A stretch of DNA of 26,575 bases from an uncultured Desulfobacteraceae bacterium (GTDB lineage: Bacteria; Desulfobacterota; DSM-4660; Desulfatiglandales; Desulfatiglandaceae), in the NCBI GenBank assembly GCA_964483185.1, contig CAZACO010000001.1, positions 1 to 26,575 of the forward strand. Reading direction: 5' to 3'. The notes below the pieces were generated by a model. That model saw only the letters and a program-made list of their open reading frames with translations, had not been told where the DNA came from and searched no databases. Of this stretch, positions 147 to 23,295 are shown one piece after another. The translations under genes were made by a program, and so were the position numbers. Position 1 is the stretch's first letter, and every line of letters begins with the position of its first letter.

Positions 147-773
147 TTGCCTGCTACCACAAAAACAAATTTCCAGTTGGTCTCCAATGGCATCCTGAAC
201 GAGAATCCGATCTTTCGTCTGGCCCTTTCCATGTGCCCGGCCGTGGGAATCAGCACGACGGTCATGAATGGACTCATGTTAGGGATTGCCGTCCTCTTCG
301 TACAGGTGTTTTCAAGTTGCACAATAGCGGCCATCAAGGACTATATTCACCCCAGGATCAGGATTCCCACCTATACCCTGACGATTGCCACATGGGTGAC
401 GGTGATTGATCTGGTCCTGGCAGCATACATGCCTGCGGCCTACAAGGAGATGGGAATTTTCGTTAAGCTGATCGTGGCCTTTGCCATTATAACTATGAGA
501 TTAGAGATTTTCGCATGCAAAAACACGGTGTCCGCCTCTTTCTGGGATGGCATCGGCATGGGTCTGGGGTTTATGTTCGGCATGATGGCGCTCGGTTTTG
601 TAAGAGAATTATTGGGAATGGGGACGATTTTAGGGCACGACGTTTTAGGATTCCGGCCGCTCCTTTTCTTTGTCCTCCCGGCAGCCGGATTCTTCTGCGT
701 AGGCATTATGATGGCGTTGTTCAACTATATGGAGATTCTTTATAACCGGAAGAAAAGGGCCGAAGAGATATGA
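147..773 (+). CDS. rnfE: Rnf electron transport complex subunit E (divergent RsxE/RnfE)
   Basis: TTG start after an AGGA RBS. ENPIFRLALSMCP, RIRIP, GIFVKLIV…R.E.FA.KN, DGIGMGLGF and VRELLG motifs match the RnfE/NqrD family. Hydrophobic multi-TM protein whose stop overlaps the rnfA start (ATGA). Confidence 0.93.
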   Translation: MPATTKTNFQLVSNGILNENPIFRLALSMCPAVGISTTVMNGLMLGIAVLFVQVFSSCTIAAIKDYIHPRIRIPTYTLTIATWVTVIDLVLAAYMPAAYKEMGIFVKLIVAFAIITMRLEIFACKNTVSASFWDGIGMGLGFMFGMMALGFVRELLGMGTILGHDVLGFRPLLFFVLPAAGFFCVGIMMALFNYMEILYNRKKRAEEI

Positions 774-1732
774 AATTTCCCGGGCGAAGATATCTATTCC
801 CAGGCATTTTGGTTATTATCGCGATCTTCTGTATCAGCGGGTGTAAATCCGAGCACCGTTTTGTAAAGAAAACGGCCTTTAAAGAGGCCAACCAGATCGT
901 CATCGAGTTTGCCGGGCCGGTTGACGAGACCTGGGCAAAGGATCCTTCCAATTATATTGCTTGCGAAAAGCCTGACCCGGATATCAGGCTGAAGATTCAA
1001 CAGGTAACCGTCAGCGCGGACAAAAAAAACGTCACGTTGACATTTGCAGATGACCTCAATAAAAACCAGCCGCATGGGGTGACGGTCAACAATATTTCTT
1101 CTGAAGGGAGAGCATTGGGCACAGCCATCCTCAATGTTAAGAAGGTCTACCTCGGATATCTTTTTTCAATTCTTATCGGCGCGATGATTATCAATAACTT
1201 CGTTTTTACCAAGTATTTAGGTCTGTGTGTGTTTTTCGGGACATCTCAGAAGAAGTCCACTGCGGTGGGCATGGGGATCACATTTACCATCGTCATCATT
1301 GTCAGTGCAATGATGTCTTGGTTCCTCTACCAGTTTGTGCTACAACCTTACCGGTTGGACTTTTTGCAGATCGTTGTCTTTATCGGATTGGTTTCTTTAT
1401 CGGTTCAGGCGGTTGATACCATCTTAAGGAAGGTCAACCCGCTTCTGTTCAAGGCATTCGGGGTTTACCTGGTACTGGTCATCGCAAATTGTATTATTAT
1501 TGCCGTTCCCCTGATCCTTGCGGACAATCAATATAATGCATTTGAGAGTCTTATGCTTGCCCTTGGGGCCGGGCTCGGATTTTTGATTGCCCTGTTCCTG
1601 ATGTCCTCTGTCCGTGAAAGGCTGGAATTGGCCAATGTTCCCCCTACATACCGGGGCCTCCCCATCGCTTTTGTCGTGGCTGGCCTGTTCGCGCTGGCCT
1701 TTTTGGGATTTTCGGGAATGTCTATCTTTTAG
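770..1732 (+). CDS. rnfA: Rnf subunit A with an extra ~125-aa N-terminal lipoprotein/Ig-like domain
   Basis: The C-terminal ~195 aa have the RnfA motifs NNFVFTKYLGLC, AVGMG, LQIVVFI, ANCII, GAGLGF and RERL…VP. The N-terminus has a basic n-region, a hydrophobic h-region and a lipobox ISG-C (Cys25), then a beta-rich soluble domain. Confidence 0.93.
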   Translation: MKFPGRRYLFPGILVIIAIFCISGCKSEHRFVKKTAFKEANQIVIEFAGPVDETWAKDPSNYIACEKPDPDIRLKIQQVTVSADKKNVTLTFADDLNKNQPHGVTVNNISSEGRALGTAILNVKKVYLGYLFSILIGAMIINNFVFTKYLGLCVFFGTSQKKSTAVGMGITFTIVIIVSAMMSWFLYQFVLQPYRLDFLQIVVFIGLVSLSVQAVDTILRKVNPLLFKAFGVYLVLVIANCIIIAVPLILADNQYNAFESLMLALGAGLGFLIALFLMSSVRERLELANVPPTYRGLPIAFVVAGLFALAFLGFSGMSIF

Positions 1733-1925: not shown

Positions 1926-1938
1926 CCAAGGAGAATTG

Positions 1939-2805
1939 ATGGATCCAATATTGGTAAAACTGGCACTTGGCGGGTTAGCCGTATTGGGGTGCATTGGCCT
2001 GTTTTTTGGTATCGGTCTCGCCCTTGCCGCACACAAGTTTGCCGTGGAGGCCAATCCCAAGGTCGAGGAGGTATTGGAGGTTTTGGCAGGGGCCCAGTGA
2101 GGGGGATGCGGCTTCCCAGGGTGTGAAGCGTATGCCGAAGCGGTGGTGACTGCTCCCGATGTTCCCCCCAACCTCTGCTTCCCCGGCAAGGCGGAAGTAG
2201 CCAAAATGGTTGCAGAGATAACGGGCAAAAAAATGGCCGCTGTAGAAGATGTGGTAGCGACTGTCCGCTGTTCAAGAATCGAGGGAAAGGTCAAAAAGAA
2301 GCTGAACTATATCGGCTATGGGTCATGTACCGCTGCGACATTAGCCTTTGGGGGCCCATCTTCATGCCGGTACGCGTGCGTGGGCTTAGGTGAATGCGCT
2401 GAAGACTGCCCTTTTGACGCCATCGACATGGTGGACGGTTTTCCGGTTGTTGATTCAGCCCTCTGCGTTGGCTGCGGGACCTGTGTCCGCGTCTGCCCAA
2501 AGGGGATTATCGAATTGATCCCCTTGAAGGCCAGGGTCTGGGTCCCGTGCAGCACCAGAGATCCGGGCAAGGCCGTAAAACAGACCTGCGAGGTGGGTTG
2601 CATCTCGTGCAAAATGTGCGTCAAGACGTGCCCCGCAGAGGCAGTTACATTGGAGGACGGCATTGTCAGGATCGATCACCGGAAGTGTATGGAATTCGGT
2701 CCTGAGTGCGGTGAGATATGTATTGAGAAGTGCCCCAGGGGTATCTTCAGAAGCTATTCAGGGAGCCAAAAGTCAGTCCAACAGACAACCATGGCGGCGG
2801 CCTGA
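1939..2805 (+). CDS. rnfB: Rnf subunit B (polyferredoxin), probable selenoprotein (UGA = Sec54), 288 aa
   Basis: ATG 1939 follows AAGGAG. The frame reads MDPILVKLALGGLAVLGCIGLFFGIGLALAAHKFAVEANPKVEEVLEVLAGAQ-TGA(2098-2100)-GGCGFPGCEAYAEAV…PNLC and continues in frame into the 2143..2805 ORF with multiple CxxCxxCxxxCP motifs. The TGA sits at the first Cys of the RnfB 'N-C-G-x-C-G-x-x-G-C' motif. Confidence 0.9.
2101..2136 (+). promoter_or_regulatory. Candidate bacterial SECIS hairpin directly 3' of the in-frame UGA
   Basis: Folded by eye: AUGCG(2106-2110)/CGUAU(2129-2133), bulged G2111, CUUC(2112-2115)/GAAG(2125-2128), and a G-rich apical loop CCAGGGUGU starting about 15 nt after the UGA. Not computed. 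Confidence 0.6.
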
Positions 2806-2822: not shown

Positions 2823-3896
2823 ATGGAAAGAAATGGACGATTACATCATACATCGGGAATTATGAGTCGAAGGTCTTTTCTGAAGCTTTCGGGAATTCTC
2901 GGTATCGGTTTTGTCTCTGCTACAGTCATCCCCACCCGGGCGGAGGCCGTGAGGTTTAACAGCAGGCTCTACAAGATCTCCAAGACCCGGTTGGCCATGG
3001 GAACGTTTGTCTCCATGACACTCCTTCACGAATCGAAGGACCAGGCCCAAGAGGCGATGGGAGAGGCCTTTCTTGAAATCGACCGGCTGGCGCGGACCAT
3101 CAGCCGTTTTGATGAGACAACGGCCGTTGCGCAGCTCAACCGGGAGGGGTATCTGAAAGATATTCCCCCTGAGGTGGGAGAGGTGGTTGCCAGGTCGTTA
3201 GCGTACTACCGAATCAGCAACGGGGCCTTTGATATATCTGTCAAACCGGTCGTCGACCTGTTCAAAGAAAAGTTTTCCAAGGGTAAAAAAATGCCGCCCA
3301 CTGAAGCAGAGCTGAGGGAGGCGCTCAGGCTGGTCAATGCGTCCGATATCGAATTTGGGAGACGCGACGTCCGTTTCAAGCGTCCGGGTATGGGGATTAC
3401 ATTAGATGGCATTGCAAAGGGATATATTGTGGACAGGGCCTCCGGGGTCCTTGCCGGGCACCGGATAACGAATCACCTGATCAATGCCGGTGGTGACATC
3501 CGTACAATGGGCCACCGCCTTGACAAGAAGCCATGGACCATTGCGGTTCAGGATCCTCAGAAAGAGAAACATTATCCCGGCATTATTCATCTGACGGACG
3601 GGGCGGTTGCCACGTCAGGTAACTATGAGATCTATTTTGACCGGGAAAAGATGTTTCATCATATCGTGAACCCCCATACCGGGTTATCTCCCGAAGAGAG
3701 CACGAGCGTGTCGGTCTTGGCAGACACGGCCATGGAGGCAGATGCCCTCTCTACGAGTGTATTTGTCATGGCGCCCGAGCACGGCACACGCTTTATTAAC
3801 TCGCTTCCCAGATGTGAATCTCTCGTGGTAGCTAAGGGGAACATAAAGATCGAATCGGAGGGATGGAAAAGCGCGGCGATTTCAGGAATGAGTTGA
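2823..3896 (+). CDS. apbE: FAD:protein FMN transferase (ApbE) with a twin-arginine signal peptide
   Basis: ATG 2823 follows a GGAGG RBS, so the ORF-track start at 2730 is too far upstream. Motifs: MGT, LDGIAKGYIVD, NAGGDI, ATSGNYE, HIVNPHTG, ADALST. N-terminus SRRSFLK + hydrophobic stretch + AEA. Adjacent to rnf, whose RnfD/RnfG need covalent FMN. Confidence 0.93.
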   Translation: MERNGRLHHTSGIMSRRSFLKLSGILGIGFVSATVIPTRAEAVRFNSRLYKISKTRLAMGTFVSMTLLHESKDQAQEAMGEAFLEIDRLARTISRFDETTAVAQLNREGYLKDIPPEVGEVVARSLAYYRISNGAFDISVKPVVDLFKEKFSKGKKMPPTEAELREALRLVNASDIEFGRRDVRFKRPGMGITLDGIAKGYIVDRASGVLAGHRITNHLINAGGDIRTMGHRLDKKPWTIAVQDPQKEKHYPGIIHLTDGAVATSGNYEIYFDREKMFHHIVNPHTGLSPEESTSVSVLADTAMEADALSTSVFVMAPEHGTRFINSLPRCESLVVAKGNIKIESEGWKSAAISGMS

Positions 3897-11701: not shown

Positions 11702-12361
11702 ATGGCAGAAACTGCGATTAACACCTATAAAACGAAGACCGAACTGGTCTACGATTACCTCCGAACGAATATTTTGCAGAAACATTTTAAACCCGGGGAT
11801 AAGATCATCATCCGCGAAATTTCCAAAATGTTAAACCTCAGCGATATCCCGGTGAGGGAGGCCATCAAGAAACTGGAGACCCAGGGGTTGCTTCATGTGG
11901 TTCCCCACACCGGAGCGCGGGTGGCCGAAATCGACCGAAAGGAGATGGAGGAGATTTATATCATTCGCAGCACCCTCGAGGCCCTAGCCACGCAATTAGC
12001 CTGCCCCTATATAAAGTCGGAAGACTTCCAGAGGCTGGAGAAAATATTGGGAAAGTACGAGGATACGTTTCGCGCTGGGAAATATGAGGCTCTAAGTGAA
12101 TTGAATAAAGAATTTCATCTGGAAATCTACAGATGTTCCCCCTACAAGAGCCTCTTCAAAATGATTGTGGAAATATGGGAGCGGTCAAAGATGATCCGCC
12201 ATGCCTTTTCTCTGCCCAGTTCTTTGCGGGAGCAGTCGATGAAAGAACATCGATTGATATTGCAATTGTTGCGAAAGGGGAACGGCGAAGAGGCGGCCGA
12301 ACTCGTGCGGAAGCAGAAAATTGCCTCGTGGAAGGTAATTTCAACGCTCATGGAAGAATGA
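11702..12361 (+). CDS. GntR family transcriptional regulator (wHTH + FCD domain)
   Basis: VYDYLRTNIL…KPGDKI…SDIPVREAIKKLETQGLL…PHTGARV (GntR HTH); FCD-type C-terminus (LNKEFH…EH..I). Confidence 0.95.
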   Translation: MAETAINTYKTKTELVYDYLRTNILQKHFKPGDKIIIREISKMLNLSDIPVREAIKKLETQGLLHVVPHTGARVAEIDRKEMEEIYIIRSTLEALATQLACPYIKSEDFQRLEKILGKYEDTFRAGKYEALSELNKEFHLEIYRCSPYKSLFKMIVEIWERSKMIRHAFSLPSSLREQSMKEHRLILQLLRKGNGEEAAELVRKQKIASWKVISTLMEE

Positions 12362-12486
12362 GGTTCTTTTAAACGGCATACCCGATACGATGGTTTTTCA
12401 ATTTGGTGTGATCAAGGAAGAGGCCCAGAAAAGATTGAGAAAACCATGAATGTCAGTTGCCGAAAATACAAAACAGGAGGTGCATT

Positions 12487-13473
12487 ATGGCAAAGGGAAG
12501 AAATTGGTCAAAAAGTAAATCTTGTTTCGTTTTAGTGGCATTGCTCATGGTACTATTTTACGCCTTTCCAGGGTTCGGAGAGGAATACCCATCCCAGACC
12601 ATCAAAATCATCGTGCCATATCCCCCAGGAGGAGTTACGGATTTAATCAGCCGATCCATGGCAGATACGATGGCCAAAGTGCTGGGGCAGCCGGTAATCA
12701 TCGAGAATAAGCCGGGTGGAGGAACGACTGTGGCTTATTCCCTTGTGGCCAACTCCAAGCCCGATGGGTATACAATCGGACATCTTGCCGTGGGGACTTT
12801 GGTTGGTAATTTTTTGGCTTATGACGTTGCTTACAACCCACTGAAGAGCTTTGACTACATTGGAGAAGTTGGGATCTATGCACAATCCATCATTGTTAAA
12901 TCAGATGCCCCCTGGAAGACGTGGGATGAATTTGTTGACTACTCCAAGAAACATCCCCAGAAGATCCGTATGGGCCTTACTAACCAGGTAAGCACCAATG
13001 CCATCCCTACCAAATGGATTAATCATCGATTGGGAAATCCATGGAAAGAAGTGGCCTTTCGTGGTGACACTCCATGTATTACCGCTCTATTAGGCGGGCA
13101 TATCGATGCTTTTGCGGGGGGAGGCGCCCATAACATATTGGTGAACGACGGCCGAGCAAGAATGCTTCTGGCTTTGACGAACAATCCGATCCCTGGTCAT
13201 CCAAATGTTCCGACCTTCAAGCAGGTATACGGCAAACCCGTAGGCAACTTTGCGGGTTACATGGCTCCGGCGGGACTACCTGCCGACGTCCTCAAAAAAC
13301 TGGAAAAGGCAACGAATGAAGCGACCAAGGCTCCGGAATTCCTCAAAGTGATGGAGAAGATGTCCATGACCCCGCTGTGGCGGAACGGTGAGGAACTGAC
13401 CGAGGAGGTGAAAACCCTGCTCTCAACTCTTGAAACATTTTATAAAGATTTAGGTAAACTGAAAAAGAAGTAA
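12487..13473 (+). CDS. tctC: Tripartite tricarboxylate transporter substrate-binding protein (TctC/Bug family)
   Basis: ATG 12487 follows AGGAGG. Signal peptide, then YPSQTIKIIVPYPPGGVTD, GQPVIIENKPGGG, KPDGYT, ALLGGHID, PNVPTF, APAGLP. Confidence 0.93.
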   Translation: MAKGRNWSKSKSCFVLVALLMVLFYAFPGFGEEYPSQTIKIIVPYPPGGVTDLISRSMADTMAKVLGQPVIIENKPGGGTTVAYSLVANSKPDGYTIGHLAVGTLVGNFLAYDVAYNPLKSFDYIGEVGIYAQSIIVKSDAPWKTWDEFVDYSKKHPQKIRMGLTNQVSTNAIPTKWINHRLGNPWKEVAFRGDTPCITALLGGHIDAFAGGGAHNILVNDGRARMLLALTNNPIPGHPNVPTFKQVYGKPVGNFAGYMAPAGLPADVLKKLEKATNEATKAPEFLKVMEKMSMTPLWRNGEELTEEVKTLLSTLETFYKDLGKLKKK

Positions 13474-13551
13474 AATTTTTGGACCTGTGTGATCAGTTTA
13501 TCGCAGCCTGGAAACAACCGGATTTGAGCGCATGAGTCGTCCGGTCACACA

Positions 13552-13609
13552 CGTGAAAAGTGAAGAATGAAACGTGAAATCTCCTTTACTCATGGAGTTT
13601 CACGTTTCA
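13552..13609. repeat. Intergenic hairpin built from 7-nt units
   Basis: CGTGAAA-AGTGAAG-AATGAAA-CGTGAAA (13552-13579). TGAAACGTGAAA(T)CTCC pairs with GGAGTTTCACGTTTCA (13594-13609) around a 9-nt loop. Confidence 0.8.
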
Positions 13610-13742
13610 GAACCCAGAAGTTCAGCACACGAGGAGGATTTGTTTGGTGCATTGTCGATATCTCAGGTCTAACCGTACAGGTCCAGATTTCTGGTTCATC
13701 CAAACGAATCTTTGACCTCTCCATAGAGAAGAGGAGGGCTAG

Positions 13743-14624
13743 GTGTCCAGGAAATTACCCAGGTTTGAATATTTCCGGCCAGAGAGTTTCCAAGAGGCGA
13801 TGGAAATTTTGAAGAAGCACGAGCACAAGATCCGCCCCCTGGCTGGCGGGACGGATCTGTTCATTGCGATGAAAGAAAAGGGGGCCGCATGGGAAAACGT
13901 TTTGGATTTGAAGGGCATCCCTGACTACGATTACATTCGAGAAGTGGACGGCGGGATCGAGATCGGGGCCCTGGCCACGATCCGTTCCGTGGAAACTTCC
14001 CCCTTGATTAAAGAGAAGATTCCTCTTCTGGCCTCTGCTGCGGGAACGATTGGATCCATCCAAATTCGAAACAGGGCCACCATAGGAGGGAATCTATGCA
14101 ATGCGGCTCCCTCAGCAGATACGGCCCCAGCCCTCCTTTGCCTGAGAGCCGAAGTGGAAATCATCGAGGAAGCGGGAGTAAGAAGGATTCCCCTTGACGA
14201 ATTTTTTGTGGGTCCGGGCAAAACACTACTCCGGGAGACTGCCCTTCTGAAGAAGATTTTTGTTCCCTTTCAACCTTTGAATAGTGCCGGCATTTATTTC
14301 AAAGAAAGTCCGCGCCGGGCCATGGATTTGGCTGTGGCCGGGGTGTCCTGCCTCATGACGTTCGATTCGGCCAAAAAGAAATGCCTTGATTGCCGAATCG
14401 CTTTGGGGGCTGTGGCCCCAACCCCCATGCGGGCGAAGAATGCTGAAAAACTTATGATGAACCAACAGATAACAGAAAAGGAAATCGCCGCAGCAGGAGA
14501 AACGGCCAGTGGAGAATGCAGTCCCATCAGCGATGTAAGGGGGTCTGCACAGTTCCGTCGAGAAATGGTGAGAGTATTTGTTGAAAAAGGTTTGCGTGAG
14601 TTATGGAGTGAGGTAAGGTCTTAA
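13743..14624 (+). CDS. Xanthine dehydrogenase family FAD-binding (medium) subunit, CoxM/CutM-like
   Basis: FEYFRP, LAGGTDL, IRNRATIGGNLCNAAPSAD, FFVGPGKT, ALGAVAPTP, PISDVRGSA. No 4Fe-4S insertion. GTG start after GAGGAGG. Confidence 0.94.
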   Translation: MSRKLPRFEYFRPESFQEAMEILKKHEHKIRPLAGGTDLFIAMKEKGAAWENVLDLKGIPDYDYIREVDGGIEIGALATIRSVETSPLIKEKIPLLASAAGTIGSIQIRNRATIGGNLCNAAPSADTAPALLCLRAEVEIIEEAGVRRIPLDEFFVGPGKTLLRETALLKKIFVPFQPLNSAGIYFKESPRRAMDLAVAGVSCLMTFDSAKKKCLDCRIALGAVAPTPMRAKNAEKLMMNQQITEKEIAAAGETASGECSPISDVRGSAQFRREMVRVFVEKGLRELWSEVRS

Positions 14625-14648
14625 CCTTGTTCTCCGAGGTATGGAAGC

Positions 14649-15200
14649 ATGAAACATTCTATTAAAATGGTTGTGAATGGGGAAGATTATGAGCTTGTGG
14701 TAAACCCAAATGAACTGCTCATTGATGTCCTGAGGGATCGATTGGATTTGACGGGGACGAAGGAGGGGTGCGGAACAGGGGATTGCGGGGCCTGCACGGT
14801 CCTGGTGGACGGCAAAGCCATCAATTCCTGCCTGACCTTGGCGATCGAGATGAACGACAAGGAGATCTTCACCATAGAAGGGATGGCCCCTGGGGGAAAA
14901 CTGAATCCGATCCAAGAGGCTTTTATCGATGAAGGAGCCGTCCAGTGCGGGTTCTGCACCCCCGGAATGATCCTATCTGCTAAGGCCCTGCTACAGGAAA
15001 AGCGCCTTCCCTCAGAAGACGAGATCAAGAGGGGAATCGCGGGCAATCTCTGCCGATGTACCGGCTATAAGAAAATCATTCAGGCCATTCAAACGGCAAG
15101 CCTGCGTTTGGGAAAAGAGAGCAATGCAACTGCTGGGCAATCCCGGGAAGCATGCCTTCGATCTGCGCCCCAGCAAGGGACCTGCCTTAGTTCGGAGTAA
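14649..15200 (+). CDS. Xanthine dehydrogenase family 2x[2Fe-2S] (small) subunit, CoxS-like
   Basis: GTKEGCGTGDCGACTV…NSCL, QCGFCTPG, GNLCRCTGY. Confidence 0.95.
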   Translation: MKHSIKMVVNGEDYELVVNPNELLIDVLRDRLDLTGTKEGCGTGDCGACTVLVDGKAINSCLTLAIEMNDKEIFTIEGMAPGGKLNPIQEAFIDEGAVQCGFCTPGMILSAKALLQEKRLPSEDEIKRGIAGNLCRCTGYKKIIQAIQTASLRLGKESNATAGQSREACLRSAPQQGTCLSSE

Positions 15201-15205
15201 TTCCA

Positions 15206-17482
15206 ATGAATAATTTTCAATTTATAGGGAAAAGGATACCCGTCATTGATGCCAAGGAGAAGGTAACTGGCGAGGCCAAGTATACAGCCGATCTGAAATT
15301 TCCCCATATGCTTTACGGTAAAATTCTACGGAGCCCCCACCCCCACGCAAGAGTCCTGAATATCGATATCAGCCGCGCACAAAAGATCCCCGGAGTCAAA
15401 GCCATCGTGACCGGAGAACAGATCCCTAAGAAAAAAATAGGCGCCTTTATCGAAGATCAATATATCCTGGCCGTGGATAAAGTACGTTATATCGGAGAAG
15501 AAATCGCGGCGGTAGCGGCCATCGATGAAGAGACAGCAGAGGAAGCCTGTAATCTGATCGAAGTAGACTACGAGGTTCTCCCGGCAGTTTTTGATGTGGA
15601 AAAGGCCATCTTGCCGGATGCTCCGCGGATCCACGAGGAAGCCGTGAACAACATTGCCATGCGGCTAGATATCAATCGGGGAGATGTCAAGACAGGGTTT
15701 GAAGAATCTGATTATATCTTTGAGGAACGCTTTAGCACACCAAGTGTACATCAGGGTTATATGGAGCCCATGGCTGCGATTGCTTCGTTTGATATCCATG
15801 GCAGAATGACCCTGTGGGCTCCGGTTCAACATATCTACTTGGCCCGGGCTCATTTAGCCAAGGCCTTGAGTATGCCGGTGAGCGCCATCCGCGTCATCCA
15901 ACCTAAAGTGGGCGGCGGATTCGGTGGTAAAACTGCTGATCAGATGAGCATCCCGATTTGTTGTGTGCTGGCCAAAGCGACCCAAAAACCTGTGAAGCTT
16001 GTCTTGACCCGAAAGGAGGAGTTTATTTCAGGCAGGCCACGAGTGGCAACCGTTATTTATTTAAAGATGGGTGTAAAAAGCGACGGGACCTTCATGGCCA
16101 AGGAAGCCAGAATTTTTTCGGACAATGGAGCTTATTCAGGGAAAAGTCCCTCCATTATGACGACCACTGCAATCCGCGCTGATGCCCTTTATCAATACAA
16201 GAATGTCAAAGCCGAAGCCAACTTGGTCTATACAAACAAAGTGCCCACAGGAGGCTATCGCGGATTTGGGAATCCCCAGATGGCCTTTGCGGTTGAAAGT
16301 CTTATTGACACCATTGCCCACCAGCTTGAATTGGACCCACTCGAGATTCGTCTGAAGAATGCTGTCGAACCGGGTATGACAACAGTCCACGGATGGAAGA
16401 TCAAGAGCTGCGGCTATCGGGAGTGTATTACAAAAGCGGCGGCCGCCGCAGAATGGAACAGGTATAAAAAAGGGAAGCGTACTGCCAAGATCGGCGTAGG
16501 GATCGCCGGGGCTGCGGATGTAAGCGGGAATAAGCACTTCGGCTATGATGGTTCGAACATTCTCCTAAAAATAACCGAAGATGGAAAAGCCAGGATCATC
16601 TCTGGCGAAGGAGATATCGGCCAGGGTGGAACAACCATATTGACACAGATTGTCGCTGAGGAATTGGGGATTCCTTTGGAAGAGATAGAGGTCTCGGTGG
16701 CCGATACAGATTCAACCCTCTTTTGCTTGGGTGCCTTTGCAAGCCGTTTAACTACGCTGGCTGGCAATGCGGTAAAATTAGCAGCGGCGGATGCTAAAAG
16801 ACAGCTTTTTGATATCGCTGCAAAGGTTCTGGAAGCGAATCAGGAGGATTTATTGTGTAAAAATGGAAAAGTATTTGTGCAGGGGTCTTTAGAAAAAAAG
16901 TTGACGATAGCCGAAGTCATGCAGGCAGGACTTCTGAAATTGGGGAAATTCGGCAATATCAATATCCTGGGCCGAGGTTCTTTTGACCCGGATTCTGAAG
17001 TATGGGACCCTAAGAGCAAATATGGAAATATCGCCAGCACCTATCAATTTGCGGCCCATGTCGCGGTGGTGAAAGTATGCGAGGAAACTGGCCACATACA
17101 GATATTGGATTATGCGGCTGCGCACGATGTTGGCCGGGCCATTAACATGCTGACTTTGGAAGGTCAAATTGAAGGAGGGGTTACCCAGGGAATCGGATAT
17201 GCCCTATGGGAAAATTATTTGTTTAAAGACGGCAAGCTTCTCAATCCTAATTTTACTGACTTCAAAATCCCTCTGGCCCCGGATTTACCACCCATCAAAA
17301 ACATCATTGTCGAACCTGGGGATCCTGTAGGCCCATTTGGGGCGAAAGGCGTGGGTCAGACCCCCTTGGTTCCTGCGGCACCGGCAATTGCCAACGCTAT
17401 CTTTGATGCGGTGGGGGTAAGGATTACCGATTTACCCATCACTTCCGGTAAAATCCTGCAGGCCTTACGGGAAAGAAAATGA
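15206..17482 (+). CDS. Xanthine dehydrogenase family molybdopterin-binding (large) subunit 1
   Basis: KVTGEAKYTAD, LRSPHPHA, HQGYMEP, VGGGFGGK, GYRGFGNPQ, DIGQG, GAFASR, EGQIEGGVTQGIG, GPFGAKGVGQ. Confidence 0.95.
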   Translation: MNNFQFIGKRIPVIDAKEKVTGEAKYTADLKFPHMLYGKILRSPHPHARVLNIDISRAQKIPGVKAIVTGEQIPKKKIGAFIEDQYILAVDKVRYIGEEIAAVAAIDEETAEEACNLIEVDYEVLPAVFDVEKAILPDAPRIHEEAVNNIAMRLDINRGDVKTGFEESDYIFEERFSTPSVHQGYMEPMAAIASFDIHGRMTLWAPVQHIYLARAHLAKALSMPVSAIRVIQPKVGGGFGGKTADQMSIPICCVLAKATQKPVKLVLTRKEEFISGRPRVATVIYLKMGVKSDGTFMAKEARIFSDNGAYSGKSPSIMTTTAIRADALYQYKNVKAEANLVYTNKVPTGGYRGFGNPQMAFAVESLIDTIAHQLELDPLEIRLKNAVEPGMTTVHGWKIKSCGYRECITKAAAAAEWNRYKKGKRTAKIGVGIAGAADVSGNKHFGYDGSNILLKITEDGKARIISGEGDIGQGGTTILTQIVAEELGIPLEEIEVSVADTDSTLFCLGAFASRLTTLAGNAVKLAAADAKRQLFDIAAKVLEANQEDLLCKNGKVFVQGSLEKKLTIAEVMQAGLLKLGKFGNINILGRGSFDPDSEVWDPKSKYGNIASTYQFAAHVAVVKVCEETGHIQILDYAAAHDVGRAINMLTLEGQIEGGVTQGIGYALWENYLFKDGKLLNPNFTDFKIPLAPDLPPIKNIIVEPGDPVGPFGAKGVGQTPLVPAAPAIANAIFDAVGVRITDLPITSGKILQALRERK

Positions 17483-17545
17483 AAAACTAGGATTGGCGTT
17501 CTCCGGTTGCCCGAAAGGGTCAGACAATCTGCTGAGAGATGAGAT

Positions 17546-18001
17546 ATGAAGGAATATGACCTTTACGGTGGTCTGTTCTGGCTGCTCATGGCCATTTTTG
17601 TGAGCGTCATGGGGGTGAAGTTTGGCCTGGGGACCCTCGGATATCCCGGCCCCGGATTTTTCCCCTTTCTGGTGGGTCTAATATTGTTCTGCTTCTCTTT
17701 CGGCATCATCATTATTGCCTTTAAAGAAAAAGCCAAAGGGCCAGGGTTTACGGAATGGCCGTTTTTCGGAAAAAAGGTCTTTGCTACCCTGGCCATTCTA
17801 TTCGCCTACTCTTTTTCCCTTGAATATCTCGGATTCATTATTGGTTCATCTCTCTTAATGTTTTATCTCTTCAAGGTACCCGGGGCCCAAAAGTGGTGGC
17901 TTTCCGCGACCGCCACAGTGGTTACAATTGCCCTGGCGTACTATTTTTTCGTAGTCCTGCTGAAGGCGCAGTTACCGAAAGGGCTCTTGGATATGGGTTA
18001 G
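17546..18001 (+). CDS. tctB: Tripartite tricarboxylate transporter small membrane subunit TctB
   Basis: Four TM helices, GPGFFP motif, LEYLGF, C-terminal L..QLPKG; directly upstream of tctA. Confidence 0.88.
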   Translation: MKEYDLYGGLFWLLMAIFVSVMGVKFGLGTLGYPGPGFFPFLVGLILFCFSFGIIIIAFKEKAKGPGFTEWPFFGKKVFATLAILFAYSFSLEYLGFIIGSSLLMFYLFKVPGAQKWWLSATATVVTIALAYYFFVVLLKAQLPKGLLDMG

Positions 18002-18116
18002 GCGCCGATATAGAGGTGGTCCAATCCCGGATGGCTCATCACTATAGAACCTTGAGAAAATGAAAACCGGTAACTGCCTGAAGTTGCTTGGCATTTACTT
18101 CTTTAGGGATATTAGA

Positions 18117-19655
18117 TTGGATACTTACAGCAGCATCGTTTTAGGATTAGAAATCGGGCTGTTGCCGATGAATTTACTCTTTTGTTTTATAGGGGTACTG
18201 ACTGGAACTCTAGTGGGAGTGCTTCCGGGGGTCGGACCGGTGGCGGCGATGGCCCTGCTTTTGCCCGCTACGTTCCACATAGCCCCGGCGGCTGCTATCA
18301 TCATGCTGGCCGGAATCTATTACGGGTCGATGTACGGCGGATCAACCACCTCCATCTTGGTCAATATCCCCGGGGAAGCAGGTTCCGTGATTACCTGCCT
18401 GGATGGATATCAGATGGCCCGCAAGGGGAGAGCGGGCCCCGCCTTAGGCATATCCGCCTTTGGTTCTTTCATCGCCGGAACGTTCGGGGTGTTGATCCTG
18501 ATGCTAATCGCCAATCCGATGGCGGAATTTGTATTGAAATTCGGCCCTCCTGAATATTCTGCCGTCATGGTCCTTGGCTTGAGCTTATTGATTTATCTTG
18601 CTCAGGGATCCAGAATTAAGGCGCTGGTGATGGCCTGTTTTGGTTTGATTCTCAGCTTTATCGGCATTGACGTTTTGACCGGGCAGCATCGGTTGAATTT
18701 CGGATCGATGAACTTCGCGGAAGGCGTCGGGTTGGTCCCCGTGATTATGGGAGTCTTCGGCATCTCCGAAGTATTGATCAACATGGAACAGATGACGAAG
18801 CAGGAGATCTATGAGACGAAAATCCGCGGGCTTTTCCCATCATTGAACGACTGGGCGAGGTCGAAATGGCCGATCATTCGTGGTTCGGTCCTGGGTTTCA
18901 TTCTGGGGGTTCTCCCCGGAGGCGGGCCAACCCTGGCGGCCTTTGCGAGTTACGCCCTGGAAAAAAAGATATCCAAGCACCCGGAAACATTTGGAACCGG
19001 TGCCATTGAGGGAGTCGCAGGACCCGAGTCTGCCAACAATTCCGCCACGTCAGGAGGTTTTATTCCCTTGTTTCTCATCGGGATTCCCACCAATGGGATT
19101 CTGGCAATGCTTTTCAGCGCCCTTCTGATTCACGGCCTTCAGCCTGGACCGTTATTGCTGCAGCAGAACCCCGAGGTCTTTTGGGGAGTAGTGATGAGCA
19201 TGTATATCGGGAACGTGATGCTTCTCGTATTAAACCTGCCTTTGATCGGAGTCTGGATAAAAATATTGAAGATACCCTATCCGATTCTATTTCCCCTGAT
19301 CATATTCTTTTGCTTAATCGGCTCCTACAGCATTAACAACAACGCATTGGACGTAATCGTCATGTTGATTTTTGGCTTGATCGGTTATGTCATGAGAAAG
19401 TTCGGTTACGAGGGTGCCCCGCTGATTCTGGCCCTTATTCTGGGTCCGATGCTGGAGCGGTCCTTCATTCAATCCCTGAACATGTCTGGGGGGACCTATC
19501 AGATATTCTTCGGGAGCGTCATTTCCGCCGTAACGATGATCATTGCATTGGGCGTGATCTTTTCCTCGTTAATCCCGCTTTTACGAAAGAGAAGTCCAGT
19601 AACCGAGAGTTTTTCGAAGAAATGCTCAGAGGACCGTGTTACTGTTGAGGACTAG
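18117..19655 (+). CDS. tctA: Tripartite tricarboxylate transporter large membrane subunit TctA
   Basis: GTLVGVLPGVG, YYGSMYGGS, NIPGE, DGYQMARKG, GPESANN, GIPT, GLQPGP. The likely start is TTG 18117 (MDTYSS…); the ORF track uses 18060. Confidence 0.95.
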   Translation: MDTYSSIVLGLEIGLLPMNLLFCFIGVLTGTLVGVLPGVGPVAAMALLLPATFHIAPAAAIIMLAGIYYGSMYGGSTTSILVNIPGEAGSVITCLDGYQMARKGRAGPALGISAFGSFIAGTFGVLILMLIANPMAEFVLKFGPPEYSAVMVLGLSLLIYLAQGSRIKALVMACFGLILSFIGIDVLTGQHRLNFGSMNFAEGVGLVPVIMGVFGISEVLINMEQMTKQEIYETKIRGLFPSLNDWARSKWPIIRGSVLGFILGVLPGGGPTLAAFASYALEKKISKHPETFGTGAIEGVAGPESANNSATSGGFIPLFLIGIPTNGILAMLFSALLIHGLQPGPLLLQQNPEVFWGVVMSMYIGNVMLLVLNLPLIGVWIKILKIPYPILFPLIIFFCLIGSYSINNNALDVIVMLIFGLIGYVMRKFGYEGAPLILALILGPMLERSFIQSLNMSGGTYQIFFGSVISAVTMIIALGVIFSSLIPLLRKRSPVTESFSKKCSEDRVTVED

Positions 19656-19666
19656 CTTAGGAGAGG

Positions 19667-20461
19667 ATGAACTCTATGATAATCTTGCGATACCAGTGGA
19701 AGGGGATGATCAGGTGGGGCATTCTGGAAGGGGAAGAGAAGATCTTCGCGTTGGAAGGAGATCTTTACGGCGATTTTGGAAAAGGCAAAGAAGTCTGCCG
19801 TTTGGCTGATGTCAAGCTCCTCGCCCCTGCAGAACCGACCATCATGGTAGCCTGCGGCATGAACTATCGGGCACGGTTCCTAGAAGGCGGGTTGAAGGAG
19901 GAGCCGCAGGAGCCAATCCTTTTCTTTAAGCCTGCAACAGCGGTGATCGGTTCTTTTGAAGACGTGGTTTTTCCGGCGATTGCGCGAGAAATGCGCTATG
20001 AGGGTGAGCTATGCGTGGTCATGAAGAGGCATGCCAGAAATGTATCGGAGAAAGATGCAATGCGTTATGTATTAGGATACACCTGCGGGAATGAGTTGGG
20101 GGCAATGGATCTAATGAAGAAGGACCGTTGGATGACAAGGGCCAAAGGCTTCGACACCTCCGGCCCCCTGGGTCCTTTTCTTGTCACGGATCTCAATCCT
20201 CATGGCCTGTCGATCAAGAGCCGGCTCAATGGCCAAACCAGACAAGACAGCCATACGAGCCTCATGATTTTTCGGGTGGAAAAGCTGATCAGTTATATTT
20301 CGGAGTTTATGACCCTTCGCCCCGGAGACGTCATCTGGACAGGTACCCCTGCTGGGAACAGCAATGTGAAGGTGGGGGATCTCATGGAAGTCGAGATCGA
20401 AGGAATCGGAATCCTTAGCAACAGGGTTGTTGCGTCGAGTAATTCTGGAAAAAGAGCGTGA
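19667..20461 (+). CDS. Fumarylacetoacetate hydrolase (FAH) family protein
   Basis: EPILFFKP, YEGEL, GYTCGNE, RAKGFDTSGPLGP, TLRPGDVIWTGTP, GDLMEVEIEGIGILSN. Confidence 0.92.
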   Translation: MNSMIILRYQWKGMIRWGILEGEEKIFALEGDLYGDFGKGKEVCRLADVKLLAPAEPTIMVACGMNYRARFLEGGLKEEPQEPILFFKPATAVIGSFEDVVFPAIAREMRYEGELCVVMKRHARNVSEKDAMRYVLGYTCGNELGAMDLMKKDRWMTRAKGFDTSGPLGPFLVTDLNPHGLSIKSRLNGQTRQDSHTSLMIFRVEKLISYISEFMTLRPGDVIWTGTPAGNSNVKVGDLMEVEIEGIGILSNRVVASSNSGKRA

Positions 20462-20520
20462 GGAAGAAAACTTGGTGATAAAAGGAAATGCAGTGCACAA
20501 GAAATACAAGGAGTATTTAC

Positions 20521-21309
20521 ATGGAGCAAATTACGGGAAATGTATTCTATGAGAATAGATTTCGGGGATGCAATCTTGGCCTTGTGGTCACCGATGATGG
20601 TGTTGTCCTGATCGATACCCCTGTGGATTTTGAAGTTGCCCAAGGGTGGATGGGGGAGATTGCCAAACGAGGGGAAGTTCGCTGTATCATCAATACGGAA
20701 CATCACATGGACCACTGGTTGTGCAACGGGCTCTTTGCGGGGGACATCATCGCCCATGAAGCAACCCGGGAGACCATGCTGACCATGGATCTCGATTTCA
20801 TCGCCAAGCGAACACAGATCCTCTATCTTGAGCCCCACCAAATCCCGGAGGGGTATCAACTGAAGTATCCAAACATGACCTACCACGGGAGGATGACACT
20901 CTATTTTGGGAAACACACCTTTCATCTCATTCATACTCCTGGCCACACTCCCGGAGTCACGGCCGTTTATATTCCTGAAGAGAGGGTAGTCTTCACGGGT
21001 GATAACGTCGTCGGCGGGACCCGTACAGCCTACCACGATGCCCTGCCCGAAAAATGGATCGAGTCCCTCAAGCGGCTGCAAGACCTGGATATCCAAACAG
21101 TGCTTCCCGGCCATGGAAAGGTGTGCGATAAAGCATATTTGAAGCAGCAGGCGGAGATCGTACACGGATGGTGGCAAGGAACACAAAAAGCCAAGACCGA
21201 AGGCATCCCTTTTGACGATGAGGCGAAACGCAAAATCGATCCCTTTTTCGATTTTCGAGACACCGGGATCAGACCTACGGTGACTTTGACCGCCACATCG
21301 GCCCGATAA
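20521..21309 (+). CDS. Metallo-beta-lactamase-fold hydrolase (cyclase-like group)
   Basis: ATG 20521 follows AAGGAG. NLGLV…GVVLIDTP, INTEHHMDH, HTPGHT, FTGDN, PGHG. Confidence 0.9.
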   Translation: MEQITGNVFYENRFRGCNLGLVVTDDGVVLIDTPVDFEVAQGWMGEIAKRGEVRCIINTEHHMDHWLCNGLFAGDIIAHEATRETMLTMDLDFIAKRTQILYLEPHQIPEGYQLKYPNMTYHGRMTLYFGKHTFHLIHTPGHTPGVTAVYIPEERVVFTGDNVVGGTRTAYHDALPEKWIESLKRLQDLDIQTVLPGHGKVCDKAYLKQQAEIVHGWWQGTQKAKTEGIPFDDEAKRKIDPFFDFRDTGIRPTVTLTATSAR

Positions 21310-21353
21310 GGTCAGCCAATGATCATCAACCAGGCAAAGGAGGAGAATTGGAG

Positions 21354-22583
21354 ATGTCACAAGGTAAAGATGAAAGCCCATGGGTAGCGCCGGGGAAGTG
21401 GTCTGTCAGTCCCTACTGCTACGAGCCTGAGGTAAGAACTGATTGGCGGCTGCCCAAGGAGATTGCTATTCATGATGTTACTCTCAGAGATGGGGAGCAG
21501 ACGCCGGGGGTTGTCTTCCGAAAGGATGAAAAATTGAAAATAGCTCATGCCCTGGAGGATGCCGGCGTGCAGCGCATCGAGGGAGGCATGATTTCCACCT
21601 CCGAGGAAGATTTCGATGCAATCCGGGCCATGGTACGGGAAATCAAAAGATCCGAGGTGGCCTGCTTCTGCAGGGCACGACGCGACGACCTAGAACGGTC
21701 TCTCAAGGCCGGGGTACACCGGGTCATCATGGAGATAACCGCCCAGGATCCGATCATTAGAAAGATTTGGGGGAGCCGGGGGAAGGCGGTAGAAGAGATC
21801 ATCAAATTGGCTCAATTTGCTAAGACCAACGGTCTCAAGGTTACTTTCTTCCTCATGGAAAGCAGCCGAAGCCCACTGGATCTCCTGCGGGATTTCATTG
21901 TCCCGGTTGTTCGGGAGGGGAAGGTAGACCATGTCACGATCGTGGATACACGCGGATCAGCTTTCCCCCCCGCTTTCGCCTGGATAGTCTCCCAGGTCAA
22001 GCAATGGGTGCAGATTCCGGTTGAGGTCCATTGCCATAACAACTGGGGGCTGGCTACGGCTGCGACTCTGGCTGGAATCACGGCCGGGGCCGAGGTGGTT
22101 CACACCTGCATTAACGGGATGGGTGGCAACGCATCGCTGGATGAAATCGTTATGGGCGCCGAAGCTCTCTTGGGGGTGAAGACCGGCGTGAAGACGGAAA
22201 TGTTCCAGGAGATGTCCGCGAGGGTCAGAGAGATGTCCGGGGCCGACTGGTACAAGCCTTTTGTTGGGTCCCTGACTTCCCAGGTAGAGGTGGGCATCGC
22301 CACCCGGCAGATGTGGGATCGACGCAATGAAAAGGGGTATGGGCGGGCAGAACCGCTCAATTATGAGGTTGTTGGGGGGAAGGCGGTCGAGTTGGCGCTA
22401 GGGAAAAAGAGTGGAAGGTATTCGATGATGCTGAAGGCATGGGAGCACGGCCTGCCTCAACCTTCTGAAGAGCAGGCAACCGAAATGGTGAGTAGGGTGA
22501 AAAAGATTTCGGAAGCCGAAAAACGTCTGGTCACGGACGAGGAATTCAAGAAGATATACACCCAGGTCTGCGATGCTGGATAG
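21354..22583 (+). CDS. DRE-TIM metallolyase (HMGL-like; homocitrate/isopropylmalate synthase-like catalytic domain, no regulatory domain)
   Basis: IHDVTLRDGEQTPG, EVHCHNNWGLA.A..LAG..AGA, GMGGNA, LGKKSG. The start is ATG 21354, or TTG 21348. Confidence 0.88.
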   Translation: MSQGKDESPWVAPGKWSVSPYCYEPEVRTDWRLPKEIAIHDVTLRDGEQTPGVVFRKDEKLKIAHALEDAGVQRIEGGMISTSEEDFDAIRAMVREIKRSEVACFCRARRDDLERSLKAGVHRVIMEITAQDPIIRKIWGSRGKAVEEIIKLAQFAKTNGLKVTFFLMESSRSPLDLLRDFIVPVVREGKVDHVTIVDTRGSAFPPAFAWIVSQVKQWVQIPVEVHCHNNWGLATAATLAGITAGAEVVHTCINGMGGNASLDEIVMGAEALLGVKTGVKTEMFQEMSARVREMSGADWYKPFVGSLTSQVEVGIATRQMWDRRNEKGYGRAEPLNYEVVGGKAVELALGKKSGRYSMMLKAWEHGLPQPSEEQATEMVSRVKKISEAEKRLVTDEEFKKIYTQVCDAG

Positions 22584-22713
22584 GTTCTTTTCGTGGCTTA
22601 TTGGGCATTCCCCTTTTTAGAAAATCTTCTCCAGCAGCGTATTAAGGGCTTCCCCTTGCCTGAAGGGAATTTGCCCCAGGGCGAGGACTTTTAAGAGAGG
22701 GAGGGACGAATCC

Positions 22714-23295
22714 ATGGCGCCTGTGAGGAAATCCGAGGAGAGGAAAAAGTTGCGGAATCATTCCGTGGCCGAGAAGAAAGATAATCTGCCCAGGTTGGTT
22801 CGGCGCCTTTCAGTAAACGTGAACGGAAAGCAGGTTGAACTGGATGTCGATTCCCGCATGACCCTGGCTGAGTTCTTGCGCGAAAAGCTGGGTTTGACCG
22901 GCACGAAAGTGGGCTGCAACCGTGCCGAGTGCGGGAGCTGCACGGTCCTGCTTGACGGGAATCCCGTATATTCCTGCACTACATTGGCCGTGGAAGCGGC
23001 TGGCAGGAAAGTTGTGACCATTGAAGGGTTGGCAGTCAATGGTCAACTCCATCCGATTCAAGAAGCCTTCATTGAGCTGGACGCTCTCCAGTGCGGATTC
23101 TGCACACCCGGGATGATTCTGTCCCTTAAAGCCTTTCTGGAAAACAAGTTCCGGCCTACAGACGAAGAGATTAGAATTGCTATCGACGGAAACCTTTGTC
23201 GCTGCGGCTGCTATCCCAATATCATCCATGCAGCCAAAACCGCAGCCGAAAAAATGACACCTATCCGGGGTGGGGGAGAGGGAAAGGATGGATAG
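22714..23295 (+). CDS. Xanthine dehydrogenase family 2x[2Fe-2S] subunit (PaoA/YagT-like)
   Basis: GTKVGCNRAECGSCTV…YSCT, QCGFCTPG, GNLCRCGCYPNI. Charged N-terminal extension without a hydrophobic signal. Confidence 0.94.
   Translation: MAPVRKSEERKKLRNHSVAEKKDNLPRLVRRLSVNVNGKQVELDVDSRMTLAEFLREKLGLTGTKVGCNRAECGSCTVLLDGNPVYSCTTLAVEAAGRKVVTIEGLAVNGQLHPIQEAFIELDALQCGFCTPGMILSLKAFLENKFRPTDEEIRIAIDGNLCRCGCYPNIIHAAKTAAEKMTPIRGGGEGKDG

Follow-up and report, generated by a model that had tools for sequence, protein, structure and literature searches.

We analyzed a 26,575-nt stretch of DNA from an uncultured Desulfobacteraceae bacterium (contig CAZACO010000001.1, positions 1 to 26,575; this whole stretch is called the window below) and found that its rnfB gene, which codes for subunit B of the Rnf electron transport complex, very probably specifies a selenoprotein of 288 residues. 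Selenocysteine (Sec) at position 54, inserted with the help of SelB and a selenocysteine insertion sequence (SECIS), would replace the first cysteine of the [4Fe-4S] cluster motif in the FdI domain of RnfB. The gene product is an RnfB, translation proceeds across a conserved UGA codon that lies opposite a ligand cysteine of homologous proteins, and the genes with this UGA carry a hairpin that distant genes with a cysteine codon lack. A Sec-containing RnfB had already been proposed in an earlier note made from the letters of this DNA, and the proposal gained support from the pairing of TGA with cysteine codons among relatives, from purifying selection on both sides of the TGA, and from the hairpin.

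The rnfB frame is interrupted once, at a probable cluster ligand position

As described in the earlier note, a single frame extends from ATG 1939 to the stop codon of rnfB (TGA 2803-2805), and its sole in-frame interruption is the TGA at 2098-2100, which is codon 54 (Table 1). The good ribosome binding site reported there was likewise found, as the Shine-Dalgarno-like sequence AAGGAG. At this locus the mechanical list of open reading frames (ORFs) contains only a frame of 220 amino acids that starts with GTG 2143 and ends at 2805, which is the truncation the note had pointed out.

The translation shows the layout of an RnfB protein, with an N-terminal transmembrane (TM) anchor, an FdI domain with the motif CxxCx4Cx17C, in which the first cysteine is replaced by the UGA codon, and a polyferredoxin module. 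When U was replaced by C, the product matched PF04060 at residues 49-81 and several Fer4 (4Fe-4S ferredoxin) domains. It scored 434.3 bits over residues 8-281 against the NCBIfam model NF005503, "RnfABCDGE type electron transport complex subunit B," for which the curated cutoff is 252 bits. Alignment with phmmer to solved RnfB chains covered residues 15-268 (E = 1e-59), and the alignments to 7zc6_B and 9eri_B started at residue 12-15, in agreement with the N-terminal anchor that had been claimed for the protein. The gene was assigned as rnfB because of these family matches, its neighbors rnfE, rnfA, and apbE, and the synteny with a Cys-type relative, locus L082.

The peptide around residue 54 reads ...VLAGAQ-U-GGCGFPGCEAYAEAVV..., and the complete motif is U54-G-G-C57-G-F-P-G-C62-x17-C80 (U-x2-C-x4-C-x17-C). 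In the phmmer alignments, residue 54 lies opposite the first cysteine of CGGCGxxGC in 7zc6_B, 9eri_B, and 8ahx_B. The placement of the TGA on the first cysteine of the RnfB motif was thus confirmed; the spacing to the last cysteine had been given as x16 and is x17.

Codon 54 is TGA or a cysteine codon in related loci

A genome scan with one genome per species provided 80 related loci, and a metagenome scan seeded with the RnfB protein of Syntrophus gentianae provided 80 more. Codon 54 was TGA in 20, TGC in 47, and TGT in 13 of the genome loci, and TGA in 15, TGC in 52, and TGT in 13 of the metagenome loci. Over all 160 loci, 35 thus contained TGA and 125 contained TGC or TGT, which answers the question whether TGA is aligned with cysteine in several orthologs. 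In each TGA locus, this codon was the only in-frame stop. All 21 TGA genes of the window's clade had an ATG start codon and were open to about codon 289, with a single internal stop at codon 54, and TGA was also present at this position in the Syntrophus-like metagenomic loci L084 to L087. The four motif positions were invariant across the Sec and Cys forms. According to the earlier note, a nonsense mutation would be indicated if all close orthologs had cysteine and no conserved hairpin; instead, TGA was found in 35 loci and the hairpin described below in all 21 TGA genes of the window's clade. A search of a collection of billions of predicted proteins gave no full-length product of the TGA-bearing loci among the best matches, and the best full-length matches were Cys forms with at most 79% identity.

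Codons on both sides of the TGA are under purifying selection

In the 21 TGA genes, synonymous sites were near saturation, with a mean proportion of synonymous differences (pS) of 0.71. The ratio of the nonsynonymous to the synonymous proportion (pN/pS) was 0.086 for codons 1-53 and 0.18 for codons 55-270. For codons 55-68, the 14 codons directly past the TGA that include two cluster ligands, pN/pS was as low as 0.038, and 13 of the 16 variable columns in this segment were third codon positions. An in-frame ATG, GTG, or TTG was absent within 19 codons past the TGA in 9 of the 21 genes, and no restart codon was conserved. Since codons 55-68 are constrained and lie ahead of any possible restart, they must be translated in the rnfB frame, which requires decoding of the UGA.

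TGA is also the most frequent ordinary stop codon in the window, where it ends 10 of the 24 main ORFs, rnfB among them. A reassignment of the genetic code was rejected on this ground. Taken together, the distribution of the TGA, the selection around it, and its use as an ordinary stop rule out that the gene is split or a pseudogene, that the TGA stems from a sequencing error, or that a variant genetic code is used. When the window was searched for further genes with an in-frame TGA, just gene ends and out-of-frame noise were obtained.

A SECIS-like hairpin follows the UGA

In the following, hairpin nucleotides are numbered with the U of UGA as nt 1. The stem is formed by GGCUUC (nt 13/14-18) and GAAGC(N) (nt 28-32/33), and the pair C20-G26, often together with A21-U25, closes a loop containing G22-G23. 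For the window, local folding of nt 9-37 gave an energy of -7.8 kcal/mol with the GGG at 2119-2121 in the apical loop. A lower stem specific to the window lengthens the hairpin to 2106-2133; with this stem, the G-rich-loop hairpin begins about 6 nt past the UGA, as the earlier note had it.

The five core pairs were formed in 95-100% of the 21 TGA genes, whereas among 53 distinct Cys genes of the more distant clade pair 14-32 was possible in none and pair 17-29 in only two. The mean energy of the hairpin defined in this way was -9.6 kcal/mol in the TGA genes (-7.5 or lower in 15 of the 21) versus +3.4 kcal/mol in the distant-clade Cys genes, and in all 21 TGA genes the local minimum free energy (MFE) fold placed the GG in the apical loop. 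This helix is a consequence of the codons for Gly-Phe (GGC TTC) and Glu-Ala (GAA GCN) in the TGA forms; at these positions, Gly-Tyr and Glu-Gly are found in the distant Cys forms. Among 179 sequences, Ala64 was present in 35 of 36 U forms versus 10 of 143 C forms and Phe59 in 33 versus 8; both residues together occurred in 32 of the U forms and in 2 of the C forms.

The published bSECIS model, which is permissive, specifies an apical loop N1-G-[G/U]-N-N2 at a spacing of 16-37 nt. The window hairpin fits this model with the loop A-GGG-U and a spacing of 17-18 nt between UGA and loop (counted as 18 nt for the window). A strict SECIS rule with an ungapped stem missed the variants with a proline codon, including that of the window, and 13% of codon-shuffled controls passed it. 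A search of Rfam at the gathering threshold gave no match in the window.

The peptide C-E-A-Y-A-E-A of the window gives rise to two copies of GAAGC (2125-2129 and 2137-2141), which are mutually exclusive partners of GGCUU, and the two corresponding folds might alternate. A different hairpin, UAUCCC/GGGAUA, was seen at nt 16-36 past the Cys codon in 11 of 54 distant Cys-type genes (e.g., L053, L055, and L041). It stems from the quasi-palindromic peptide Y-P-G-C-E-G-Y and has a GG in its apical loop at the same distance. The site may have been predisposed to evolve a SECIS.

Evaluation of the Sec reading and of alternative explanations

Several observations weigh against a Sec-containing RnfB. 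The folding energy of the hairpin in the window was no better than expected by chance when compared to shuffled sequences (z = -0.03), a limit on the hairpin claim of the earlier note, and the MFE of the whole segment was equal in the TGA and Cys clades; folding energy was therefore rejected as a discriminator. It is the comparison among the related genes whose outcome goes far beyond chance. The hairpin pairs showed no compensatory double changes, none of them being altered on both sides. RNAalifold favored another register, in which nt 14-18 pair with nt 40-44 (-6.8 kcal/mol). The close Cys relatives L081 and L082 keep 7 of the 8 hairpin pairs, and the link between hairpin and TGA is therefore not absolute. 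In none of the solved Rnf structures is the FdI domain well resolved, and the ligand assignment therefore rests on the motif and on models. Finally, the 26.6-kb window contains no selA, selB, selC, or selD, and ARAGORN, which gave no match at all in the window, found no tRNA-Sec in 22 related loci either. Regarding the register, we favor pairing with nt 28-32 because it is more stable, presents the GG at the canonical distance, and is the only one in which C32, supplied by the Ala64 codon, is paired.

For the role of residue 54, the known RnfB proteins are informative. The motif CxxCx(4-5)Cx17C has been assigned to the small and very mobile FdI domain of Clostridium tetanomorphum RnfB, which carries the cluster [4Fe-4S]RnfB-1, and a swinging movement of this cluster from the fixed polyferredoxin module to the metal center held by RnfA and RnfE and back has been proposed (PMC9588780). 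Every structurally characterized RnfB has one [4Fe-4S] cluster in a flexible domain, from which electrons pass to the intramembrane [2Fe-2S] cluster of RnfA-E (PMC12174285). To judge from the motif, Sec54 is thus a probable ligand of the [4Fe-4S] cluster of FdI. A very unlikely variant is that Sec is inserted but does not act as a passive ligand: a redox-active selenenylsulfide could arise between U54 and C57, or Rnf synthesis could be coupled to the selenium supply through the UGA as a regulatory checkpoint, with the cluster being bound differently. Such a role would agree with UxxC being the classic redox motif of thiol-oxidoreductase selenoproteins, with an FdI domain that has never been well resolved experimentally, and with the statement of a 2026 review that nearly all metal-binding roles of Sec have been inferred from Cys homologs (PMC13188914). 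It is opposed by the invariance of all four motif positions in Sec and Cys forms and by the match to the [4Fe-4S]-binding motif CxxCx4-5Cx17C, which is also present in the corrinoid Fe-S protein (PMC9588780). Moreover, the RnfB protein of Thermotoga maritima consists of an FdI-type domain alone (PMC9588780), and the cluster is therefore functionally required there.

The evidence for translation across the UGA is silent on which residue enters, and the missing Sec machinery in the window and missing tRNA-Sec in the related loci would also suit a readthrough of the UGA in which near-cognate decoding or local recoding supplies one of the standard amino acids Cys, Trp, and Gly. We nevertheless regard this as highly improbable, as the combination of a TGA matched specifically to cysteine with a downstream hairpin that has the geometry of a SECIS is what characterizes Sec, and no other true stop codon is as frequent in the window as UGA. 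In addition, selenoprotein catalogs describe the Desulfobacterota as rich in Sec, and the NF005503 family is already annotated with U in RefSeq (PMC13188914).

The notion that the TGA is a genuine stop (of a split gene or pseudogene) or a sequencing error, leaving a 53-residue membrane peptide and perhaps a separate C-terminal protein starting from GTG 2143, has a negligible probability: mechanical ORF calling does yield 2143-2805 and public protein collections hold no full-length product for TGA-bearing loci, but the TGA is common to 35 independent assemblies, the selection data on both sides of it, with third-position variation past the TGA and no conserved restart, effectively refute termination, and a product from 2143 would have no membrane anchor and would miss two of the four FdI ligands.

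For the Sec reading, the following mechanism can be proposed. SelB carrying Sec-tRNA(Sec) would bind the hairpin located within the coding sequence 10-30 nt past the UGA. With the GG exposed by this hairpin at a distance of about 22-23 nt from the first base of the UGA, Sec would be inserted instead of termination taking place. Sec54 would then take the place of the first cysteine of the motif and ligate one Fe of the single [4Fe-4S] cluster of FdI, and this domain would serve as an electron shuttle that connects the C-terminal polyferredoxin module to the intramembrane Fe-S center of RnfA/RnfE. SelB dependence, selenium as part of residue 54, and a Se-Fe bond are what we infer from the combination of codon, hairpin, and motif.

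Sec and Cys forms of RnfB are interleaved

A neighbor-joining tree was calculated with residues 50-70 masked and without support values, and the number of Sec/Cys events is therefore not established by it. U forms occurred in at least three places of the tree: in the large clade of the window, at L084, and at L085 to L087 inside the Syntrophus-like clade. The common ancestor of the U forms also subtends 34 Cys forms. In the Syntrophus-like clade, the nearest Cys sisters carry Y..EG at the positions that form the hairpin arms, and some Cys forms nested in the clade of the window keep F..EA or Y..EA. This pattern fits either a repeated replacement of Sec by Cys with subsequent decay of the hairpin or several independent gains of Sec. 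It is likewise consistent with a trait that switched between Sec and Cys several times within the Desulfobacterota, with the hairpin codons for Phe59 (TTC) and Ala64 (GCN) tracking the TGA.

L081 and L082, which have TGC at codon 54 and are nested in the TGA clade, still contain the F..EA residues and resemble recent reversions from Sec to Cys in which a relic SECIS is left.

One might speculate that Sec or Cys at the first FdI ligand is an adaptive, repeatedly toggled switch that tunes the redox potential, the rate of electron transfer, or the oxidative robustness of the last cytoplasmic cluster ahead of the membrane step of Rnf, or that makes Rnf synthesis dependent on selenium; we consider this tentative and rather unlikely. 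If true, the interleaved U and C lineages and the stepwise decay from F..EA to Y..EA and Y..EG would record selection on a selenium-ligated Fe-S cluster. Such a cluster would be located in a primary ion pump, and in the literature searched no biochemical study of such toggling was found.

Genomic context of rnfB

The genes next to rnfB and the features of the UGA region are listed in Table 1. In L082, for which a longer contig was available, the gene order is rnfC-D-G-E-A-B-apbE followed by dnaB-rplI-DUF2232-rpsR-rpsF, and this locus is syntenic with the window. The genes rnfC, rnfD, and rnfG lie outside the edge of the window and were found in L082. Upstream of the rnf operon, L082 also contains a pair of a HigB-like toxin and an HTH_3 antitoxin (918-1537).

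Table 1. Positions of rnfB, its sequence elements, and neighboring genes in the window
Feature	Position	Strand	Details
rnfE	147-773	+	start codon uncertain (mechanical ORF from TTG); PF02508, 2.2e-51; NF009070 RsxE/RnfE, 212 bits
rnfA	770-1732	+	N-terminal extension of ~130 amino acids; PF02508 at residues 132-317; TIGR01943 rnfA
Shine-Dalgarno-like AAGGAG	1929-1934	+	5-10 nt before the rnfB ATG; sequence reading
rnfB, full-length selenoprotein reading	1939-2805	+	288 codons, U at codon 54, own stop TGA 2803-2805
UGA, proposed Sec codon	2098-2100	+	residue 54, first Cys-ligand position of the FdI [4Fe-4S] cluster
Cys57 codon	2107-2109	+	second cluster ligand
Proposed SECIS hairpin core	2111-2129	+	5' arm GGCUUC 2111-2115(6), 3' arm GAAGC 2125-2129, inner pairs C2117-G2123 and A2118-U2122
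Apical loop GGG	2119-2121	+	nt 22-24 from the U of UGA; GG 22-23 invariant
Cys62 codon	2122-2124	+	third cluster ligand
Second GAAGC	2137-2141	+	alternative 3' partner of GGCUU in the RNAalifold consensus
Cys80 codon	2176-2178	+	fourth cluster ligand, x17 past Cys62
apbE	2823-3896	+	flavin transferase maturing RnfG/RnfD; last in cluster; PF02424, 6.8e-76; same place in L082

The N terminus of RnfA (window 770-1160) consists of a lipoprotein-type signal, MKFPGRRYLFPGILVIIAIFCISGC (...IFCISGC), followed by a soluble domain without a Pfam match. RnfA comprises about 320 codons in Sec- and Cys-type relatives alike, compared to about 190 amino acids for a typical RnfA. The spacer between rnfA and rnfB (1733-1938) is unusually long with 206 nt. 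Short tandem repeats occupy 1750-1805 and 1891-1916 and comprise TAAAATGCC-like ones and 2.9 copies of CACTTTAGA inside TTTAGCTCAC/TTTAGACAC units. Motifs resembling CACTTTAG are also present upstream of rnfB in L003, L005, L006, and L074, and in other relatives the spacer has only 8-21 nt. The spacer could represent a regulatory site or a small repeat element.

The region 11702-25624 of the window resembles a catabolic island with a GntR/FCD regulator, a tripartite tricarboxylate transporter (TctC-TctB-TctA), an FAA-hydrolase, a metallo-beta-lactamase-fold protein, and an HMGL-like protein. It also holds two sets of molybdenum hydroxylases of the xanthine dehydrogenase family, one with FAD, 2Fe-2S, and molybdenum cofactor (MoCo) components (13743-17482) and one with 2Fe-2S and MoCo components (22714-25624). 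Some clostridial molybdenum hydroxylases use a labile selenium cofactor.

Comparison with known systems

A family that corresponds to RnfB has been listed in selenoprotein catalogs. A 2022 review includes PRK07118 as a predicted selenoprotein family with the motif UxxC and the exemplar ABC78902.1, without calling it RnfB (PMC9312934), and Zhang et al. in 2026 list NF005503 with UxxC, one Sec residue, and the exemplar WP_258165141.1, again without the name RnfB (PMC13188914). The RnfB of the window agrees with this catalogued family in the hidden Markov model (HMM) family, in having one Sec, and in its U-G-G-C, which is a UxxC motif; in the catalogs, PRK07118/NF005503 is neither named RnfB nor discussed with regard to a cluster. 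The Sec position of the window protein is probably that of the catalogued exemplars, for which the matching U-G-G-C context and, indirectly, the TGA at codon 54 in the Syntrophus-like loci L084 to L087 speak. We take the accession series of ABC78902.1 to be that of Syntrophus aciditrophicus, and a protein search with the RnfB of S. gentianae returned no entry of this species. Both reviews cite for PRK07118/NF005503 the 2008 Global Ocean Sampling (GOS) paper, in whose searched text and supplements the family is absent (PMC2398784). Sec forms in the NF005503 family are thus already known from the catalogs, as a prediction only, and the novelty of a Sec-containing RnfB is therefore low.

Among other subunits of Rnf and Nqr, RnfC and NqrE-like proteins are listed as selenoproteins in the catalog literature. 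Those papers in the searched literature that name both RnfB and selenocysteine make no link between the two, and the structural and biochemical literature on Rnf that was searched does not mention a Sec form. The genome paper on D. multivorans reports five selenoprotein genes, rnfB not being among them. Public annotation of the TGA-containing rnfB loci is systematically truncated. As gene callers cut rnfB at the UGA, reconstructions from metagenome-assembled genomes (MAGs) of Desulfobacterota may score Rnf as lacking an intact B subunit.

Compared to the Cys-type RnfB proteins of C. tetanomorphum (7ZC6), Acetobacterium woodii (9ERI), and Azotobacter vinelandii (8AHX), the protein of the window has the same N-terminal TM helix, the same flexible FdI domain with one [4Fe-4S] cluster, the same C-terminal polyferredoxin module, and the same operon context. 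It differs at the first ligand, which is cysteine in these three proteins and encoded by UGA in the window. In this widespread ion-translocating ferredoxin:NAD+ oxidoreductase, selenium would occupy a ligand position of an Fe-S cluster in the arm through which electrons enter, and the interleaved Sec and Cys forms of RnfB represent a natural comparison set for the effect of a selenium ligand on a [4Fe-4S] cluster.

With SECIS elements of the Escherichia coli fdhF type and the bSECISearch consensus, the window element shares the position of the hairpin inside the coding sequence directly past the UGA, a small apical loop starting with G-G, and the spacing of 17-18 nt. The essential loop bases G23 and U24 of the fdhF SECIS are located at nearly the same distance from the UGA. 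Unlike the fdhF-type SECIS, the TGA-containing rnfB genes have no conserved equivalent of the bulged U; the stem of the proline-codon variants, that of the window among them, is split by a C.U mismatch, and an alternative register with the second GAAGC exists.

In HdrA, FrhD/VhuD, the HgcB ferredoxin, and the large subunit of [NiFeSe] hydrogenase, Sec likewise takes a position at which the Cys homologs bind a metal or a cluster, and for most of these proteins, as for RnfB, the ligand role has been inferred from Cys homologs alone. They belong to different families, and like RnfB they are low-potential electron-transfer proteins of anaerobes, namely of Desulfobacterota and methanogens.

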